This document shows positions 35,377-60,140 of a DNA stretch of 64,000 nt, piece by piece. Each line of letters begins with the position of its first letter. Positions within the stretch are counted from its first letter, which is position 1. The DNA comes from Escherichia phage vB_EcoP_EcoN5: the sequence record MN715356. One strand, written 5' to 3'. Under the pieces are notes generated by a model that worked only from the letters and a program-made list of their open reading frames with translations, searched no databases and had not been told where the DNA came from. The position numbers were made by a program, and so were the translations under genes.

Positions 35377-37221
35377 TTAGTGTGTATGCATCCAGTTAAG
35401 TCCAATCTGACAATCAGATGCCAGAGGACATTCCATGTTCAAATACTCACCAGCCTTCTTAACACAAAGCTCGGTGTGTTCTTTGAGTTTCTGTACATCA
35501 TTACGGTTCACTGAGAACTGGCCCTCATCGTGCATATCAATTACTTTAGCACAACGAACTCCATCTTTCTCAATCCACTTGTTAAGGAACATCATAGCGT
35601 ATTTCATAACAACAGCACCAGCGCATTGCAGGAGTGTGTTAAGGGCTTTATGAACCATAACCTTACCAGTGGCATCTCGTCTCATTGTAATCTTACGACC
35701 ATCAACACCAATCAAGTATCCTTGAGCAGCTTTCTCTGTCATACGATCAATGAGGATTGCAATACATGGGTTCTCTGCCAAGAATCGTGCTCGCATCACT
35801 GAACCTTCGTCAGCCCCACCACCTACAATCGAACCAAGCTTAGCATCACCAGCACCATAGTTGAATGCGTAGATAAACGTCTTAGCATTGTCACGAGTAG
35901 GAAGACCAGCAAGTTTCTGGTTGTGGGAGTGGATATCACCTTCAAGGAGAATATCACGATACATAATAGCAGAAGCTAAACCACGTTCTGCCAGAGCTTT
36001 CTTAGCTGGATTATTCTCTTCTATTGCTTCAGCAAGCATGTCCCTACACTCTTTAATGAGGTAGTGTGCAAGCATACGCAACTCTAACCCAGAACCATCA
36101 TACCCCAAGAATACTTCTTTACCAGCGGGTATGTAATATTTGTAAGCACCTACAGGTTTGTCTTTCTTCCCCGGCTTACCTTTTTCATAAATTACGTTAG
36201 TACCTTTTCGTATATAACAACCATCAGGAACAACGTTAGTAATAACGAAAGGACGAGAGTGATCATCATCTGAGTTATAGTCAGATTCAAACAAACTGCG
36301 ACACTCATGACCAAACAAACCACGGGAGGGAATATTAACCACGATACGATGTTTGAATCGAAAAGTCGGCGTAGCGCAGCTGTTAGCTTCTGCCGAAAGT
36401 TTACCATCTTCGCGCTCCTTTGCTATAAGTCCACTAATAAGACCTAGCCTGTGAGCCGCTACAACGCGTCTCTTAAGCAAACTTCCGACACTCCCTAGCT
36501 CACCCCCTAACCCTTCTTCAAGAGTCTCCTCGAGGTTTGTAGGAGCTGTAGGCCACTTGTTTGATGTAGCTAGTGCTATCTTAATCTCATCAAAAGTGAT
36601 AGGTCTACGTCGGTTAGGGTTTAAACCTAAACCAAATACATAAGCCTTCATGTAGTTCTTAGTTTTAAACCTAAAATGCTTCTCTAAGAACTTCCTAATA
36701 TCAGCGTCAACCATCTCGGCTGTCTGCTTCTGTTTAGCATTACCTCGCATCCAAGCTGAATACCATGCTTGGTATGTTCCATACTTTCGCATATCTTTCT
36801 TGATTTCAAAAGTATTCCAAGGTTTCTTTGATACATTAAACTCTGGAGGAAGAAAGCCCTCATCCATAAGGGCTTCTTTAACTCGTGCATCTTTCGATGG
36901 GTCAAAGTCTACGTATTCAACACAGGTGAATGCTCCACCAATATCTTCCCTCTTAAGGCCAACTCTATCGCAATAGGCTTGAGGCCACTTCTGTAAAGCT
37001 CCAGACTTCTTAAATGGCTTCATATAAGTAGAGCCATCTAATCTCATCTTAGGTAAGAGAGGAATCAGTTCTTTGTCAATATTAACAATAATCTCTTTAA
37101 GGAGGTGAACATACCACCGAGCATTTCTTCGGTTGAAACTCACTCCGTGCTTCGCTTGCTTAGAGATTATATCAGCGACAGTCATCTCTGTCAAAAATGG
37201 GAGAGCGTCCGGGTTGCTCAC
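35377..37221 (-). CDS. DNA polymerase, family A polymerase domain only (T7 gp5-like, no exonuclease domain)
   Basis: Motif A YDGSGLELRMLAHY, motif B RDNAKTFIYAFNYGAG, motif C VIDMHDEGQF; 614 aa, too short to include a proofreading domain. Confidence 0.7.
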   Translation of the reverse strand: MSNPDALPFLTEMTVADIISKQAKHGVSFNRRNARWYVHLLKEIIVNIDKELIPLLPKMRLDGSTYMKPFKKSGALQKWPQAYCDRVGLKREDIGGAFTCVEYVDFDPSKDARVKEALMDEGFLPPEFNVSKKPWNTFEIKKDMRKYGTYQAWYSAWMRGNAKQKQTAEMVDADIRKFLEKHFRFKTKNYMKAYVFGLGLNPNRRRPITFDEIKIALATSNKWPTAPTNLEETLEEGLGGELGSVGSLLKRRVVAAHRLGLISGLIAKEREDGKLSAEANSCATPTFRFKHRIVVNIPSRGLFGHECRSLFESDYNSDDDHSRPFVITNVVPDGCYIRKGTNVIYEKGKPGKKDKPVGAYKYYIPAGKEVFLGYDGSGLELRMLAHYLIKECRDMLAEAIEENNPAKKALAERGLASAIMYRDILLEGDIHSHNQKLAGLPTRDNAKTFIYAFNYGAGDAKLGSIVGGGADEGSVMRARFLAENPCIAILIDRMTEKAAQGYLIGVDGRKITMRRDATGKVMVHKALNTLLQCAGAVVMKYAMMFLNKWIEKDGVRCAKVIDMHDEGQFSVNRNDVQKLKEHTELCVKKAGEYLNMECPLASDCQIGLNWMHTH

Positions 37222-44372: not shown

Positions 44373-44582
44373 TCAGTAGTAAACATTCCGAGATAGCATA
44401 CAAGTACCTTCTGAGAATTCAACCCAACGATGTATGCTAACATGTTCAACTATACCGACCAGAGCTTTCATATTCTTTTTAGCAATACGAGCCTCTTTGC
44501 GAGTATTAAACAGTTTGATATTATCTTTACCTATGTGTTGTTCATGATTCCAGACAACACGAATAGCCCACATCTTTTTCAT
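44373..44582 (-). CDS. hypothetical small protein (member of 3-copy family)
   Basis: 69 aa, paralog of 42517..42726 and 44582..44791. Confidence 0.4.
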   Translation of the reverse strand: MKKMWAIRVVWNHEQHIGKDNIKLFNTRKEARIAKKNMKALVGIVEHVSIHRWVEFSEGTCMLSRNVYY

Positions 44583-44791
44583 TAGTAGTGTACCTTTCCA
44601 CCGATATAAACACGACCAGAGGAATACTCTCTGGCCTTATGAATGCTGATGTTCTTGATCATGTCCATGTTAAACATAGACTTTTTAAAATCTCGAGCTT
44701 GTTGGCGAGTAGGCAGTGCAGTCATAGTCATACCACCTGATGCCCACTTAATCTTTGCTAACCAAAACTGTCTCATAGTGATTGGTCTCAT
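44582..44791 (-). CDS. hypothetical small protein (member of 3-copy family)
   Basis: 69 aa, tandem paralog of 44373..44582. Confidence 0.4.
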   Translation of the reverse strand: MRPITMRQFWLAKIKWASGGMTMTALPTRQQARDFKKSMFNMDMIKNISIHKAREYSSGRVYIGGKVHY

Positions 44792-45258: not shown

Positions 45259-45783
45259 CTATCTTTCATCCACATTAAAGGAGAGATGAAGTCTACTCCT
45301 CATAGACTTAGCCAAAAGCTTTGCCTCTTCAAGAGTTTTCACTCCATATACAGACTCACGTTTACCATCTTTTTGGACAGATACACAGAACGTTCCACCT
45401 TTCTCTTGGTAGACATTCTTGATTCCTAGTTTGTTATCAACCCTTGTCTTAGCATTCTGACTGTTCTCAGAGTGAGAGCACTTTCTCAGGTTAGTTTCTT
45501 CTAGATTTTCTCTATTACCGTCAGCATGATCTATTTGATATTCATCCGATAAATCCTCACCAGTATAAAGAACAAAAAGAATCCTATGATTATGGACATG
45601 AACTCCTCCTAATGGAATTTGATAATATCCATCTTTTGTGAGCTTACCAGCAGGTTTACCTACTATATCATTAGCAAACTTACTAGGCTTCCTTTTCCAA
45701 GAAAGCCCTGAAGGTGATGACATGTCTATATTAAAGAGATCAACTACCTCATCATAGCATATCAGCATGGTTTGTTCCACCAA
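45259..45783 (-). CDS. HNH homing endonuclease with AP2-like DNA-binding domain
   Basis: Motif YQIDHADGNRENLEETNLRKCSHSEN plus C-terminal YGVKTLEEAKLLAKSMR. Confidence 0.55.
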   Translation of the reverse strand: MVEQTMLICYDEVVDLFNIDMSSPSGLSWKRKPSKFANDIVGKPAGKLTKDGYYQIPLGGVHVHNHRILFVLYTGEDLSDEYQIDHADGNRENLEETNLRKCSHSENSQNAKTRVDNKLGIKNVYQEKGGTFCVSVQKDGKRESVYGVKTLEEAKLLAKSMRSRLHLSFNVDER

Positions 45784-46306
45784 AAGCTTTTGTTGGCCCT
45801 TGTTGGTTATTATATGAACCTTTCGTTGCGTAGCTGTCCTCTTCAGATGAGGAATGCTTAAAGAACTCCATTTGACCTATACGCATCCCCGGTTTAATTA
45901 GCAGAGAGTGATGTTGTAGGACATTCTTGAATTCCATAGTTAACTGACTGCCATGCCAACCGCCATCAGCATGACCAGCGTGCATGTGCTCTAAGAAGCA
46001 ACGACCGACAGTAGATCGTAGCATGAAGTCACAGCTAATGTTATCTGGAAGATTGAATGTCTCCACTGTATGAGCTAAGAAGCATTCACCCGGTTTGATC
46101 ACCAACCCTTCCTCTGGAATCATAACCTCATTGAAGTTAGGGGATTCTTTAGCAGAGATATCAACAACCCCATTAGCTGCACCTTCCATCAGAACACGAT
46201 CTCCAATACGAACGTCAATGCTGGAGGAATTAACAGCTGAGTGTGGTGCATCAATAACACCATCATCAATTAATTTATGTAACTCTGGGCTTCCTAGTAA
46301 ACTCAT
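45752..46306 (-). CDS. dcd: dCTP deaminase (Dcd/dUTPase-fold)
   Basis: Motif HAGHADGGWHGSQLTMEFKN resembles the Dcd active-site block. Confidence 0.55.
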   Translation of the reverse strand: MSLLGSPELHKLIDDGVIDAPHSAVNSSSIDVRIGDRVLMEGAANGVVDISAKESPNFNEVMIPEEGLVIKPGECFLAHTVETFNLPDNISCDFMLRSTVGRCFLEHMHAGHADGGWHGSQLTMEFKNVLQHHSLLIKPGMRIGQMEFFKHSSSEEDSYATKGSYNNQQGPTKAFGGTNHADML

Positions 46307-46315
46307 TCTTATTCC

Positions 46316-47677
46316 TTAGTTATTTGTTTCCATGTCAAAAGAGATTCCACGACCCGCTTCATCGGCAAACCGAACTGTACGGGTTTGAGGTTCTAATACT
46401 TCAGGGTTGTTAGCAACAAAGCGATCAGCGAGACTGCGACTGACGGTCTCAGCAAGTTCCTCATGAGAAGGAATATCAAGACTGCCTACCACATCTTGGG
46501 TCACGCCTTCATCAGTCCACACAGCTCTAACAGGTGCGTTGATATCACCAGCAGCAAAACCCTGACCAGAGAACTGGTGACGGCTAACAGTCAAACCATT
46601 TGGTCGACCATTAGAACGTCTAGACAACCACTGCTCAAACGAATCGCTTGTGATACCAAGGGCTTCTTCAAAAGATGTTCTACGAGTAGGGCTTACTCTT
46701 CGTAACTCTTGTGCTCGACGCATTGCAGGGGCTACAAACACCCCTTCAATTGCATTGTGCCGATTAGGTTCATCTTCTCGACCAAGCAGATCACCGCCTG
46801 TGTTAGTCGTTAAATTTGTTAACCCTTCAGACCAATACGCATAAATTTGACCAGACCCGTGAACGCTTGACATTAACAGAATCTCTTCATAAGGGATTCC
46901 AAAGAATAGACTCATGTCTCGGTTAACACAATATTGAGCACTTGTCGTATCCTCAATAAGAGCAACCTGACCTCGTTCGTTGACCAGTTGGCTAACTGGT
47001 TGAGGTGTGGGAAGATATCGAGTTTGGGCCATGTATTGATGTGCAGCTGCTGGAGAGGAAAATCTCAACACTTGCGAGTTAGGCCACTTCTTGTGAACAT
47101 ATCTGATTTCACGACTAGAAACAACCACTGGACAAGGGGCGGTCATAGCCAAGTATCCGTGAGAAGTCATGAATAAGTTGTCAAGAGTCATCGCACCACG
47201 GCACATCATAGGAAAATTATCCAATACCTCTTCAATAGAAGTAGGATAATTAAACATGAATTGGATACGAACCCCATTCCACTGAAACTCAATAATATCA
47301 GTGAACGTTAATTGAGAACTCCCAGCATAGGATTCGTTTGTAGCTTCAGCAAGAAGGGATGCATATTCAATATCTTGTGACTCTAGCCATTCCTTCACAT
47401 TACTTTCAATCTCTCTTCCAAGAGCTTGCCAACGATCAGTTGGGACGAAAGTATTTTGAGTTCTTGGTGTTTGTCCTCTGACAATAAAGATATCAATGTC
47501 ATGTGGAGCCATGTTATTAAGTACAGCATCTCGAACAGCCCCACCAGTAATGATGGGACAGATACCGTCTGGAACCAAGTTGTTATTAATCAACTGTTCA
47601 ATGAAGTTACGACCAACAGTGATATCAGGTTGTTGAGCAACCTTATCTTCAATTTGGTTAATCGGGATAACAATCAT
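46316..47677 (-). CDS. nucleotidyltransferase, tRNA CCA-adding/poly(A) polymerase head-domain family
   Basis: Motif ITGGAVRDAVL...HDIDIFIV equals the GGxVRD...DxD signature; start set to second ATG to avoid overlap (longer form to 47734 possible). Confidence 0.5.
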   Translation of the reverse strand: MIVIPINQIEDKVAQQPDITVGRNFIEQLINNNLVPDGICPIITGGAVRDAVLNNMAPHDIDIFIVRGQTPRTQNTFVPTDRWQALGREIESNVKEWLESQDIEYASLLAEATNESYAGSSQLTFTDIIEFQWNGVRIQFMFNYPTSIEEVLDNFPMMCRGAMTLDNLFMTSHGYLAMTAPCPVVVSSREIRYVHKKWPNSQVLRFSSPAAAHQYMAQTRYLPTPQPVSQLVNERGQVALIEDTTSAQYCVNRDMSLFFGIPYEEILLMSSVHGSGQIYAYWSEGLTNLTTNTGGDLLGREDEPNRHNAIEGVFVAPAMRRAQELRRVSPTRRTSFEEALGITSDSFEQWLSRRSNGRPNGLTVSRHQFSGQGFAAGDINAPVRAVWTDEGVTQDVVGSLDIPSHEELAETVSRSLADRFVANNPEVLEPQTRTVRFADEAGRGISFDMETNN

Positions 47678-47678
47678 T

Positions 47679-48233
47679 TTACATTTTCCAATATAATGAA
47701 GGTGGGTCGTAAGGGTCGAATCCTGTGAGTTCACACAAGAAAAGATAAACCTTAACGGTTAAGTTAACGTCCTGTTCACAATAAGTAAACATATCTTCAG
47801 TGAAAGCATCCCATGCTTCCTCTTGCTCACCGTAATCTCCTTTAAGTTCCTCTAAGAACTCACCCCATTGCTTCAAACCATGACCTCTTGGGCCATGTCT
47901 AGGGTCGCCTTTCGGATACTCAGGACTGTCACCAATACGGTCAGGTTTAAGATATCGACTAAGACATAAAGTGTCAAAGACATTAAAATGATATTTAATC
48001 AAAGAAGGATACATCTTCTTCAGAGCAGGCAAGTCGAAGTCAATAATATTATGACCCACTAGTACATCTGCTTCTGTAAGTTTACGAATCCCGTCTTCAA
48101 TTTGGTGAGGCCGATAGCCCCACCTTTCACCAGTTTCAACATCGAAGATGTAAATACACCACACTTTAGTTATGTCATCGTACAGTGCATTACTTTCGAT
48201 ATCAAATGCAAACACTTTCTTTTTCTTTACCAC
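47679..48233 (-). CDS. 3'-5' proofreading exonuclease (DnaQ-like, T7 DNA polymerase N-terminal-domain-like), separate gene
   Basis: Exo [10 protein letters not shown], Exo [14 protein letters not shown], Exo III YCEQDV; 184-aa stand-alone ORF. Confidence 0.6.
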
Positions 48234-57969: not shown

Positions 57970-58933
57970 TGTAATACTCCACTAGTTCAGAAAAGAGAGA
58001 TGAGATTGTGTTACCAACTTCTTCAGTAGTAAGACCAGAGTTTGGTCCAGTACGTTGAATCAGTCGGGCTGTAAAGTTTTGGACTGTAATGTTTTCCAAC
58101 TTATTGTCTATTGCTTCACGTTTGTGACCATGACAGTTGGACCAGAGTCTTAACCACTCTGACATTGTTTCATACTCGTCCGGGTCTTGATCTTTAGCAC
58201 GAGCAAATCTTCGTAAGGCATCTTGGTTATGGTTGCGAACATAACCGTCCTTGTTGTCACCAACACCGAAGGGGTTTTGAACCCATACCTGCTTCGTGTA
58301 TTCATCAGAGTCTACAACCAAAGGAAGGAATGCTGCTGCTGACATATTGTTATTAACAACAATAGAGGTGCTCTCGCTACTCCCATTGACTCTTCCTCGT
58401 TGAGACCATCCACCGAAGAAGTCACGACCCAACCCAGCTAACACTAGAGCGATGCCGATGCGTTTACGCTTCAGCCACTCTTCCCTGTCTTCAATTCCTT
58501 CTGCTAGGAAATCCATTCCACGATACTGCCCTTCCAGGATGCTACGGAAGAGCATAAGTCCTGTGAAGATTTGATCTGCTGGATGCTCACGGAGGTTGAC
58601 AGCTACACTATTCGCTGAAGTGATTGTAAATACATCACGATAGCAAGACATAGAGTTCATAATATCTGCTGTTTCAACCAAGTTCTTTTCAATTTCAGAT
58701 GCAACATGACCATGAAAAGAGTGAGTCCAGTAATTCAACATCTCCAATTGCAAGTTGATATCACGGTTGAAGCGTCTATAACGCCCATCTTCAGTGATAA
58801 CTTCGCCATCAATATCATTTACGCATTGGCCTTGCATGTAGTTGTGAATACCGAAGCACCCACGACCTAAGAACTTCTGTTCCCCTAAATCCTGTTGAAG
58901 ATTCAGAGGTACGATCGTTGTGGAGATTGACAT
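57962..58933 (-). CDS. hypothetical protein
   Basis: 323-aa co-oriented ORF. Confidence 0.4.
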   Translation of the reverse strand: MSISTTIVPLNLQQDLGEQKFLGRGCFGIHNYMQGQCVNDIDGEVITEDGRYRRFNRDINLQLEMLNYWTHSFHGHVASEIEKNLVETADIMNSMSCYRDVFTITSANSVAVNLREHPADQIFTGLMLFRSILEGQYRGMDFLAEGIEDREEWLKRKRIGIALVLAGLGRDFFGGWSQRGRVNGSSESTSIVVNNNMSAAAFLPLVVDSDEYTKQVWVQNPFGVGDNKDGYVRNHNQDALRRFARAKDQDPDEYETMSEWLRLWSNCHGHKREAIDNKLENITVQNFTARLIQRTGPNSGLTTEEVGNTISSLFSELVEYYND

Positions 58934-58943
58934 AACTAACCTT

Positions 58944-60140
58944 TTATTTTCCTAAAAATAATCCGCTCATGACACCATCCCACTCAGAGGAAGGAATCAC
59001 TGAATACTCCGAACTTTGGTCCAGAGTCCCACTACTAAATCGCTGAACAATGTTGTAGATGTTGAACAGGTCTTTAGTCTCGGCACGAATGCCGTAGATT
59101 AGCCTGTTAGCTGTTTTCTCATTTTTAGACACGCGACGGGTAAAGTTAACCAAAAGATTATCACCTTTAAGTATCTCTGACCCATCTTTTACTAGATCGG
59201 GGTGCATCACTGGCAAGAACATTGAGTTGTTAACTCGTAATTCTGCTGTTTCATCATTCTCATAATGAATCCACTTAAAGTCTTCATCACGGAAATGACC
59301 ACACCCATCTCTGTATGACTGTTGACGCCAAGGAACTTGAAATGCTTCAGAGTGTTTATCAGCCATGCCGACTGTAAACAGCGACGCTGGGAAGATACAA
59401 GCATCCCAATCATTACCAACCAGAGTTGCTTTCGTTTCCCCTAAGAGGTTAGTGTAAGTGCTAACCATTCGTGAGTAAACGTAAGCCTGAAGAATTGTCC
59501 AGCCTTCAACCAACCATTTATGAAGGAAGGTTTCAACTTGACTCTCTTCATCTTCGCAATAGAAGGTTCTATCTAACATTAAATAGAACAGACAACGATC
59601 AGCAGGAACATTCTCAGTTGCTACCCCCATAAAGCCTTTCTCGTGCCAGCGTAAACAGGAGGGACGATCTTTGTCCACAAATGCTTCCATAGCTTCCAGT
59701 ACAGCACGAGGTGTGGTTCGATATTCAGGGTTTTTGTCGTTCCAACGATCAATGTTATTCTTAGGAGGTGTGTCTTCATCTTCATACGAACACCAACTTA
59801 AAGCTTCAGCTACGTGCTTTTCATCACGCCAGCGTCTAAAACCTAACATCTTCATGTGAGTTCCGGAGTTCCAGATATGCTTGATTTTACACATATCCAT
59901 CTCTCGGCTTAACAGGAATTCTTCCCCATCAGCACTACGAACGTTAGCCTCTTCATGCCACACTCGAACGTGCATATTCCACCCATGAGTTGCCTCATAC
60001 ATGTTAGGGTCGAAGTATTCATCTTCGTCATCATCTTCATCAACGCCACCGTTATAGTTGCGAAGCTGAAGGAACCCATAACAAGGAGGGTTGACCGTTA
60101 AAACATTACCTTCAGTATCTTCTAATGTTACTGGAAACAT
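58944..60140 (-). CDS. hypothetical protein (5' 162 nt lie inside the 1518-bp repeat)
   Basis: 398-aa co-oriented ORF; acidic N-terminal stretch DEDDDEDEY. Confidence 0.4.
   Translation of the reverse strand: MFPVTLEDTEGNVLTVNPPCYGFLQLRNYNGGVDEDDDEDEYFDPNMYEATHGWNMHVRVWHEEANVRSADGEEFLLSREMDMCKIKHIWNSGTHMKMLGFRRWRDEKHVAEALSWCSYEDEDTPPKNNIDRWNDKNPEYRTTPRAVLEAMEAFVDKDRPSCLRWHEKGFMGVATENVPADRCLFYLMLDRTFYCEDEESQVETFLHKWLVEGWTILQAYVYSRMVSTYTNLLGETKATLVGNDWDACIFPASLFTVGMADKHSEAFQVPWRQQSYRDGCGHFRDEDFKWIHYENDETAELRVNNSMFLPVMHPDLVKDGSEILKGDNLLVNFTRRVSKNEKTANRLIYGIRAETKDLFNIYNIVQRFSSGTLDQSSEYSVIPSSEWDGVMSGLFLGK

Follow-up and report, generated by a model that had tools for sequence, protein, structure and literature searches.

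A conserved and fast-diverging nucleotidyltransferase in the replication operon of Escherichia phage vB_EcoP_EcoN5 and its probable kinship with the anti-Gabija protein Gad2

The sequence record MN715356 of Escherichia phage vB_EcoP_EcoN5 was analysed as one stretch of 64,000 nucleotides, here called the window, in which the minus-strand open reading frame (ORF) at 46316..47677 encodes a protein with a nucleotidyltransferase (NTase) head. The reading tentatively favoured here, with a probability of about 0.42, is that this protein is an active NTase of the Gad2 superfamily which is made together with the replication genes and probably acts in counter-defence. The view of an active enzyme engaged in conflict with the host is based on the invariance of the active-site motif, the constant place in the operon, fast divergence, and kinship with Gad2. 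The catalytic head of the superfamily that unites Gad2 and the small phage NTases derives from the Pol-beta class II fold, as in CCA-adding enzymes and poly(A) polymerase I (PAP I); to judge from its motifs, the window NTase itself is not a CCA-adding enzyme. The gene was known before, being annotated and commented on in the literature, while the failed tests of membership in the CCA-adding enzymes, the architecture with a disordered tail, the contrast in rate with the neighbouring genes, and the placement in one superfamily with Gad2 and the NTases of T7-like modules are new here.

The ORF and its relatives are as follows.

46316..47677, minus strand: complete NTase ORF, ATG at 47677, stop at 46316-46318, 453 codons; orthologue of phiEco32 gp73, SU10 CDS74, and Bas91_0067

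By megablast and tblastn the source phage was placed in the genus Kuravirus, that is, among the phiEco32-like podoviruses of the subfamily Gordonclarkvirinae. The ORF is a true gene, since it matches phrog_12715 over its full length (E 3e-258), has homologues in 96 deposited phage genomes, and is under purifying selection (ratio of nonsynonymous to synonymous substitution rates, dN/dS, of 0.18 overall and 0.10 in the N-domain), and since one peptide of the SU10 orthologue was detected by mass spectrometry (PMC4281155). Orthologues with 82-93% amino-acid identity are present in 68 deposited Escherichia and Shigella phage genomes, and those of the sister genera Nieuwekanaalvirus and Suseptimavirus show 32-40% identity, limited to the first 260 residues. 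An alternative in-frame GTG start at 47734, which is not used in annotated homologues, would lengthen the protein by 19 residues and run into the upstream gene. The existing labels are “hypothetical protein” for phiEco32 gp73 and “nucleotidyltransferase” for Bas91_0067 and in GenBank and PHROGs.

An exhaustive search of 1.84 billion representative proteins with a profile built on the N-terminal 212 residues gave about 28 clusters at E below 1e-26, mostly of 270-480 amino acids with a few short fragments, and in all of them the NTase domain begins at residue 1. They are followed, after a wide gap, by weak matches with E from 1e-8 to 1e-3, mostly to proteins of about 180-290 amino acids. A cluster look-up of remote homologues gave nothing but unnamed metagenomic proteins. 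Among deposited phage genomes the family is confined to the Gordonclarkvirinae of Escherichia and Shigella, and it appears to be small and lineage-specific.

Conservation was counted in 29 family representatives with 21-35% identity to the window protein, and together with structure prediction it divides the protein into the following parts.

47063..47677, minus strand: NTase head, Pol-beta-type (class II-like), residues 1-205
47480..47551, minus strand: motif A, residues 43-66, IITGGAVRDAVLNNMAPHDIDIFIV, including D60 and D62, the two metal-binding aspartates; no other stretch can be aligned by sequence to solved CCA enzymes
47195..47272, minus strand: residues 136-161, strand VRIQFMF and LDNFPMMCRG, RRD absent; Q139 and P156 invariant, placed by hidden Markov model (HMM) alignment to small phage NTases
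47081..47119, minus strand: residues 187-199, SREIRYVHKKWP, family-specific [RT]-[DE]-x-x-Y-x-x-[KR]-K on helix 188-197; from the 29-sequence alignment, the helix from the model
46823..47062, minus strand: family-specific helical subdomain packed on the head, residues 206-285
46319..46822, minus strand: predicted disordered tail rich in Arg, Ser, Thr, Gly, and Asn, residues 286-453
46319..46477, minus strand: C-terminal tip, residues 401-453 (...RFVANNPEVLEPQTRTVRFADEAGRGISFDMETNN), more conserved than the rest of the tail in alignments within Kuravirus

The signature GGAVRD...DIDIF, from which the first-pass annotation had recognised an NTase, is indeed present at residues 45-50 and 60-64, and within the motif A residues G45-G46-A-V-R49-D50 and D60-I-D62-I-F64 the positions G45, G46, R49, D50, D60, D62, and F64 are invariant in 29 of 29 representatives. 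Outside this motif the residues Y117, I128, Q139, P156, Y193, and K197 are likewise invariant, position 99 is always E or D, position 190 is always D or E, and M141 is kept in 28 of the 29. In the small phage NTases and in Gad2 the counterpart of residues 136-161 is the “Q.I ... FDxxIC” motif, one HMM being aligned to both, and by manual comparison with E. coli Cca residues 136-161 probably occupy the place of the class II RRDFTINA motif (motif B), while the motif at residues 187-199 might possibly be equivalent to motif D (EDxxRxxR).

The AlphaFold2 model built with the family alignment for residues 1-290 is a confident folded unit, with a mean predicted local distance difference test (pLDDT) of 90.3 and a predicted template modelling score (pTM) of 0.87. 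The description of the C-terminal two-thirds as featureless can thus be kept for residues 286-453, which have no predicted structure, but not for the preceding part, since residues 1-285 form one confident fold. In the model the marks of a Pol-beta superfamily NTase are found, namely an alpha-beta sandwich, the G[GS] and DxD elements, and likeness to solved NTases. The closest solved structures to the model are CCA-adding enzymes and PAP I, with 143-167 of 290 residues aligned, and Foldseek against the PDB ranks them alike; among predicted viral structures (Foldseek against BFVD) the top matches other than orthologues are proteins of about 170-250 amino acids that consist of the head only, from Autographiviridae and other phages, annotated as “nucleotidyltransferase” or “Poly A polymerase head domain”. 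No sequence match of the helical subdomain (residues 206-285) was detected outside the NTase family, and the PADLOC models of defence NTases (CD-NTase) give no match to this family. The acidity of the catalytic domain (N-domain isoelectric point about 4.8) was considered as an argument against nucleic-acid binding and rejected, as the head of E. coli Cca has an isoelectric point of 5.1.

The tail has pLDDT below 50 at residues 285-417 and 431-453 of the full-length model. Its length differs through insertions and deletions within Kuravirus (orthologues of 392-456 amino acids), and it cannot be aligned in other genera. Its dN/dS of 0.32-0.38, against 0.10 for the head, indicates that it is still coding and under purifying selection. 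In many distant homologues the protein ends on an aromatic residue (…ISF, …VSF, …RWQW, …GGWTF, …RFNF, …EVW) after a polar stretch rich in Arg and Ser.

The placement of the gene in a replication module, as proposed from the sequence in the first-pass annotation, is confirmed by the flanking genes.

48227..50017, minus strand: T7-gp4-type primase/helicase, two genes upstream, C-terminus ...GASPW
47679..48233, minus strand: Pol A 3'-5' exonuclease subunit, directly upstream, by annotation in phiEco32 and Bas91
45752..46306, minus strand: dCTP deaminase, downstream, starting 9 nucleotides past the NTase stop

The TAA stop of the exonuclease subunit stands one base ahead of the NTase ATG, which suggests translational coupling, and according to the tight spacing the exonuclease subunit, the NTase, and the dCTP deaminase belong to one transcription unit. 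The gene order runs primase/helicase, Pol A exonuclease subunit, NTase, in some genomes an HNH homing endonuclease, dCTP deaminase, small ORFs, Dps-like protein, thioredoxin, and ThyX, and it was the same at every locus examined, including metagenomic relatives in which the NTase is only 29-36% identical. As to the polymerase itself, the family A enzyme is split into a 184-residue 3'-5' exonuclease subunit (47679-48233) and a 614-residue polymerase subunit (35377-37221), both on the minus strand and about 9-10 kb apart, with some 25 genes between them, the NTase gene among these.

Against this constant background the NTase diverges far faster than its neighbours. Relative to phage KBNP1711 the identities are 95% for the primase/helicase, 87% for the exonuclease, and 40% for the NTase head; relative to the metagenomic relatives the values are 78-83%, 58-70%, and 29-36%, respectively. 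Within Kuravirus dN/dS is 0.18 for the NTase, 0.007 for the primase/helicase, 0.03 for Pol A, and 0.09 for the exonuclease, and the corresponding dN values are 0.064, 0.001, 0.006, and 0.021. Such a contrast may be read as the signature of an arms race. In Fri1-like Acinetobacter podophages the regions reported to vary most also include a tRNA nucleotidyltransferase gene in a similar module (PMC5537680).

Among relatives whose function has been studied, Gad2 appears to be the nearest to the window NTase, and the two are linked through the small phage NTases. The window NTase matches phrog_1614 (E 7e-8, residues 34-155), and when 41 weak matches of the family profile were scanned, 40 belonged to phrog_1614 (“nucleotidyltransferase”) and 26 matched the PolyA_pol head. 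An HMM of 30 small NTases scores the window NTase at 80 bits over residues 24-182, including the Q139 strand and F-P-x-x-C, where the small NTases have F-D-x-x-I-C; this test is partly circular, as the HMM was built from sequences recruited by the family profile. The same HMM scores the validated Gad2 of B. laterosporus, taken as the Brevibacillus homologue in Supplementary Table 10 of Yirmiya et al. (10.1101/2023.05.01.538930), at 68 bits over residues 23-177, and a narrow Firmicutes Gad2 profile matches several small phage NTases at 30-68 bits. For 27 of 44 Kuravirus orthologues the precomputed Pfam assignment is PF26128, which in the two entries looked up was Gad2, marked “(weak)”; this family was not reported when the window NTase and its orthologues were scanned with a local copy of Pfam, and it is carried by all listed homologues of the validated Gad2. 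In the study of Yirmiya et al. Gad2 was described as the second Gabija anti-defence protein, a phage-encoded protein of 400 amino acids with a predicted NTase domain, which is toxic when expressed; its deletion makes phage SPbetaL7 sensitive to Gabija, and the Brevibacillus homologue restores resistance (10.1101/2023.05.01.538930).

Gad2, which is found in SPbeta-like Bacillus phages and a Brevibacillus laterosporus prophage, is similar to the window NTase in being phage-encoded, about 400 amino acids long, and provided with an N-terminal NTase head, and the order of motifs is the same in both proteins: (A/G)GG...D-x-D, a Q-x-[IM] strand, and F-[DP]-x-x-x-C. Gad2 differs in its conserved folded C-terminal domain, in place of which the window NTase has another helical subdomain and the disordered tail, and in its location in an anti-defence locus of temperate Bacillus phages rather than in a replication operon. 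The two are probably to be seen as divergent branches of one phage NTase superfamily and not as one family.

The small NTases of phrog_1614, such as ORF16 of phiKMV and LKD16, the gh-1 NTase, gp18 of Pectobacterium phage PP2, and gp22 of Emajogi, have the head fold and the motifs in common with the window NTase (probability 1.0 by Foldseek against BFVD); they are head-only proteins of 170-250 amino acids, whereas the window NTase adds a long helix (residues 80-100), loops, the helical subdomain, and a 170-residue tail, and FD in their second motif is FP in the window NTase. They also lie in T7-like modules of replication and DNA metabolism, in the order helicase-NTase-ligase in LKD16, NTase-HNH-primase/helicase in gh-1, and ligase-NTase-DNA polymerase in PP2. 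In the Emajogi phage the NTase gp22 precedes the primase/helicase gp23, strong overexpression was found to be toxic, and some gp22 homologues are annotated as Gad2 family.

Several points weigh against a Gad2-like role in counter-defence. The link to Gad2 holds at the superfamily level only and the Pfam matches are weak: hhalign of the NTase family against Gad2 gave E 1.5e-4 with a probability of only 52%, the 92 aligned columns extending from motif A as far as the FP/FD motif, and a Gad2 profile restricted to Firmicutes aligns the window NTase at residues 42-65 alone, that is, over motif A. The C-terminal domain of Gad2 (about residues 180-394, KFYKFV...KYFSFYD) is absent from the window NTase, and Gad2 has AGGTITS where the window NTase has GGAVRD. 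The third catalytic carboxylate could not be assigned with confidence, as E130 is not conserved and the aspartate of the small-NTase FD is an invariant proline here. The strict linkage to replication genes fits a role in replication equally well. In addition, the mechanism of Gad2 was listed as unknown in a review of February 2026 (PMC12904381), so that “works like Gad2” specifies no chemistry, and a literature search gave no experiment pairing Gabija with Kuravirus NTases or with these phages.

On the reading of an active NTase in counter-defence, the protein would be a template-independent nucleoside monophosphate transferase produced alongside the replication proteins, and its role would resemble that of Gad2, being counter-defence or interference with the host and not translation. 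The counter-defence idea of the first-pass annotation may therefore survive, by a route other than tRNA repair. The preferred chemistry would be nucleotidylation either of a nucleic-acid 3'-OH, for example at a phage DNA end or in a replication intermediate, or of a host defence factor. The disordered tail with its aromatic tip may recruit the NTase to a partner such as the phage polymerase, by analogy with T7 gp2.5 and gp4, whose C-terminal tails dock on the polymerase; the primase/helicase of the window likewise has an aromatic C-terminal residue (...SPW).

Gabija has been proposed to act on the exposed ends of injected DNA (PMC12407980), which makes an end-modifying enzyme an attractive, if conjectural, model. 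In its widest form this model would regard the window NTase and the whole class of small NTases of T7 modules as replisome-tethered 3'-end tailing enzymes that shield genome ends from end-sensing nucleases such as Gabija, and tailing would then reshape the termini of replication intermediates or of the linear phage genome with its terminal repeats. So general a scheme is speculative and distinctly unlikely to hold as a whole; if true, 3'-end tailing would explain how the Gad2-type enzymes act and might add to the resistance of Gordonclarkvirinae to defence systems.

A purely replicative function, in which the enzyme is an accessory of the replisome that tails, or trims and refills, 3' ends of primers, Okazaki fragments, or direct terminal repeats, is tethered by its tail to the split Pol A, and has no role in immunity, is considered unlikely. 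In its favour, the NTase follows the exonuclease subunit by 1 nucleotide at every locus, even in the distant homologues with 29-36% identity, the related small NTases adjoin a helicase, ligase, or DNA polymerase gene in three Autographiviridae subfamilies, and the arrangement of a folded domain followed by a disordered linker and an aromatic tip is reminiscent of T7 gp2.5 and gp4 and of the ...SPW end of the window primase/helicase. However, the dN of the NTase is 3 to 60 times that of the true replisome genes, and the 40% identity between genera, compared with 87-95% for those genes, would be unusual for a core factor; neither the length nor the sequence of the tail is conserved, and to our knowledge T7 replicates without any such enzyme.

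Gordonclarkvirinae resist the tested restriction-modification systems without a known modification or inhibitor, and the BASEL authors pointed to the pair of dCTP deaminase and NTase (PMC11990801), suggesting that the two adjacent enzymes contribute to the synthesis or installation of a non-canonical base by which the genome is protected from restriction. The window contains 18 EcoRI, 37 EcoRV, 12 EcoKI, and 102 EcoP1 sites, about the expected numbers, so that site avoidance does not explain this resistance, which speaks in favour of their proposal. A dCTP deaminase together with ThyX is the ordinary route of dTTP supply, and the presence of ThyX near the deaminase argues against DNA containing deoxyuridine. 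No pathway of DNA hypermodification is known to us in which a class II-type NTase takes part; the NTases of Autographiviridae are not located beside a dCTP deaminase, and neither a hydroxymethylase nor a base-transfer enzyme is annotated in the locus. According to these facts a role in DNA modification is judged very unlikely. As a separate observation on the composition of the window, CCWGG (Dcm/EcoRII) is strongly depleted (7 observed against 74 expected), GATC is about halved (131 against 238-295), and thirteen 6-bp palindromes, including GGATCC, CTGCAG, and GGTACC, do not occur.

The first-pass annotation had assigned the protein to the NTases of the CCA-adding and poly(A) polymerase type, which matches the annotation already present in databases, and had proposed the repair of tRNA 3' ends cut by host nucleases. 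The type of fold was upheld, and the only Pfam match is the PolyA_pol head PF01743 (20.1 bits, E 8.7e-4, residues 43-127), which lies below the gathering threshold of 23 bits, as do the 20.1-21.9 bits of the orthologues; the function in CCA addition or on tRNA was not. The motif B triplet RRD was found in the first 230 residues of 0 of 29 representatives, the corresponding segment being LDNFPMMC with a variable RRD position, and motif D ([ED]DxxRxxR) in 0 of 29, EDxxR occurring once, in one sequence and at a non-homologous position. No CCA neck, body, or tail domains (Pfam PolyA_pol_RNAbd, tRNA_NucTran2_2) were detected in the window NTase, and the NCBIfam CCA and PcnB models gave no match to it. 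The comparison with class II CCA enzymes that the annotation had advised shows them to be the nearest solved folds, while the family profile aligns with them over motif A only, at E about 0.08, and hhalign of the family against the single E. coli Cca sequence likewise aligned motif A alone.

Class II CCA enzymes and bacterial PAP I (PF01743 head) therefore have motif A, GGxVRD...DxD, in common with the window NTase, which lacks motifs B and D, the neck, body, and tail, and the RNA-binding domain, and of which only about half of the folded part superposes on them. The entry 2la3, the “CCA-adding enzyme head domain” of S. pneumoniae solved by nuclear magnetic resonance, is a bacterial protein of 191 amino acids without a tail that is more distant than the full-length CCA and PAP enzymes, and we know of no function reported for it. 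The missing motifs B and D, the missing tRNA-binding domains, and the sub-threshold head match accordingly speak against the identity of a CCA-adding enzyme.

That the protein is nevertheless a tRNA nucleotidyltransferase, which restores the 3' CCA or otherwise repairs nuclease-cut tRNA, has some basis in its nearest solved structures and in the CCA enzymes encoded by jumbo phages, for which tRNA repair was proposed (PMC7824862). The missing motifs and domains, the limited superposition of 143-167 residues, and the genomic context make it highly unlikely: the annotation of the close relative Bas91 was checked for RNA ligase, polynucleotide kinase, phosphatase, and other RNA-repair genes and contains none, and the sole tRNA of these phages, tRNA-Arg(TCT), has its CCA encoded in the genome (8151-8226 in Bas91, L025). 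A homing endonuclease gene overlaps at its 3' end with the tRNA-Arg(TCT) gene; since this tRNA gene is situated slightly past the 3' end of the window, the ARAGORN scan of the window was empty.

That the protein keeps only the NTase fold and serves as a catalytically dead scaffold or regulator, as the unassigned third carboxylate and the replacement of the FD aspartate by proline could suggest, is the most improbable explanation, given that G45, G46, R49, D50, D60, and D62 are invariant across sequences with less than 30% identity, that E/D99, D/E190, Y193, and K197 are conserved in 29 of 29, and that dN/dS of the N-domain is 0.10.

Some further features of the surrounding region were observed. 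The window dCTP deaminase has about 58% identity to those of phiEco32, Bas91, and NJ01 and 100% to the allele of the IMG/VR contig L011, while the flanking genes are 97-100% identical across all of these genomes. Directly downstream of the deaminase the window and L011 have the same HNH homing endonuclease (45259-45783, minus strand, overlapping the deaminase end), and this looks like a swap of the deaminase allele that moved together with the homing endonuclease. In L011 the tblastn match of the primase/helicase is broken by an insertion of about 600 nucleotides, an intein or another homing element, which is absent from the window. At 44373-44791 (minus strand) two adjacent 69-residue ORFs are paralogues with 28% full-length identity (pairwise BLASTP E 1e-8), that is, a tandem duplication. 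Upstream of the replication genes, at about 50600-60100 (minus strand; phiEco32 genes 77-86), a cluster of glutamine amidotransferase, ATP-grasp ligase, amidoligase/COOH-NH2 ligase, and gamma-glutamyl cyclotransferase genes is located, which is kept even in distant metagenomic relatives.

In summary, database labels of the kind “CCA-adding enzyme” should not be taken as proof of tRNA repair. Gordonclarkvirinae are common coliphages with a broad host range and are of therapeutic interest, and according to published work (PMC11990801) their resistance to defence systems is unusual, most of those tested having little effect on them; an NTase that is conserved and yet evolves fast is one of the few candidate explanations for this resistance. 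Since the superfamily of Gad2 and the small NTases holds one proven anti-defence member, the substrate of the window NTase could solve the mechanism of Gad2, and it could also explain the presence of NTases in many T7-like replication modules.

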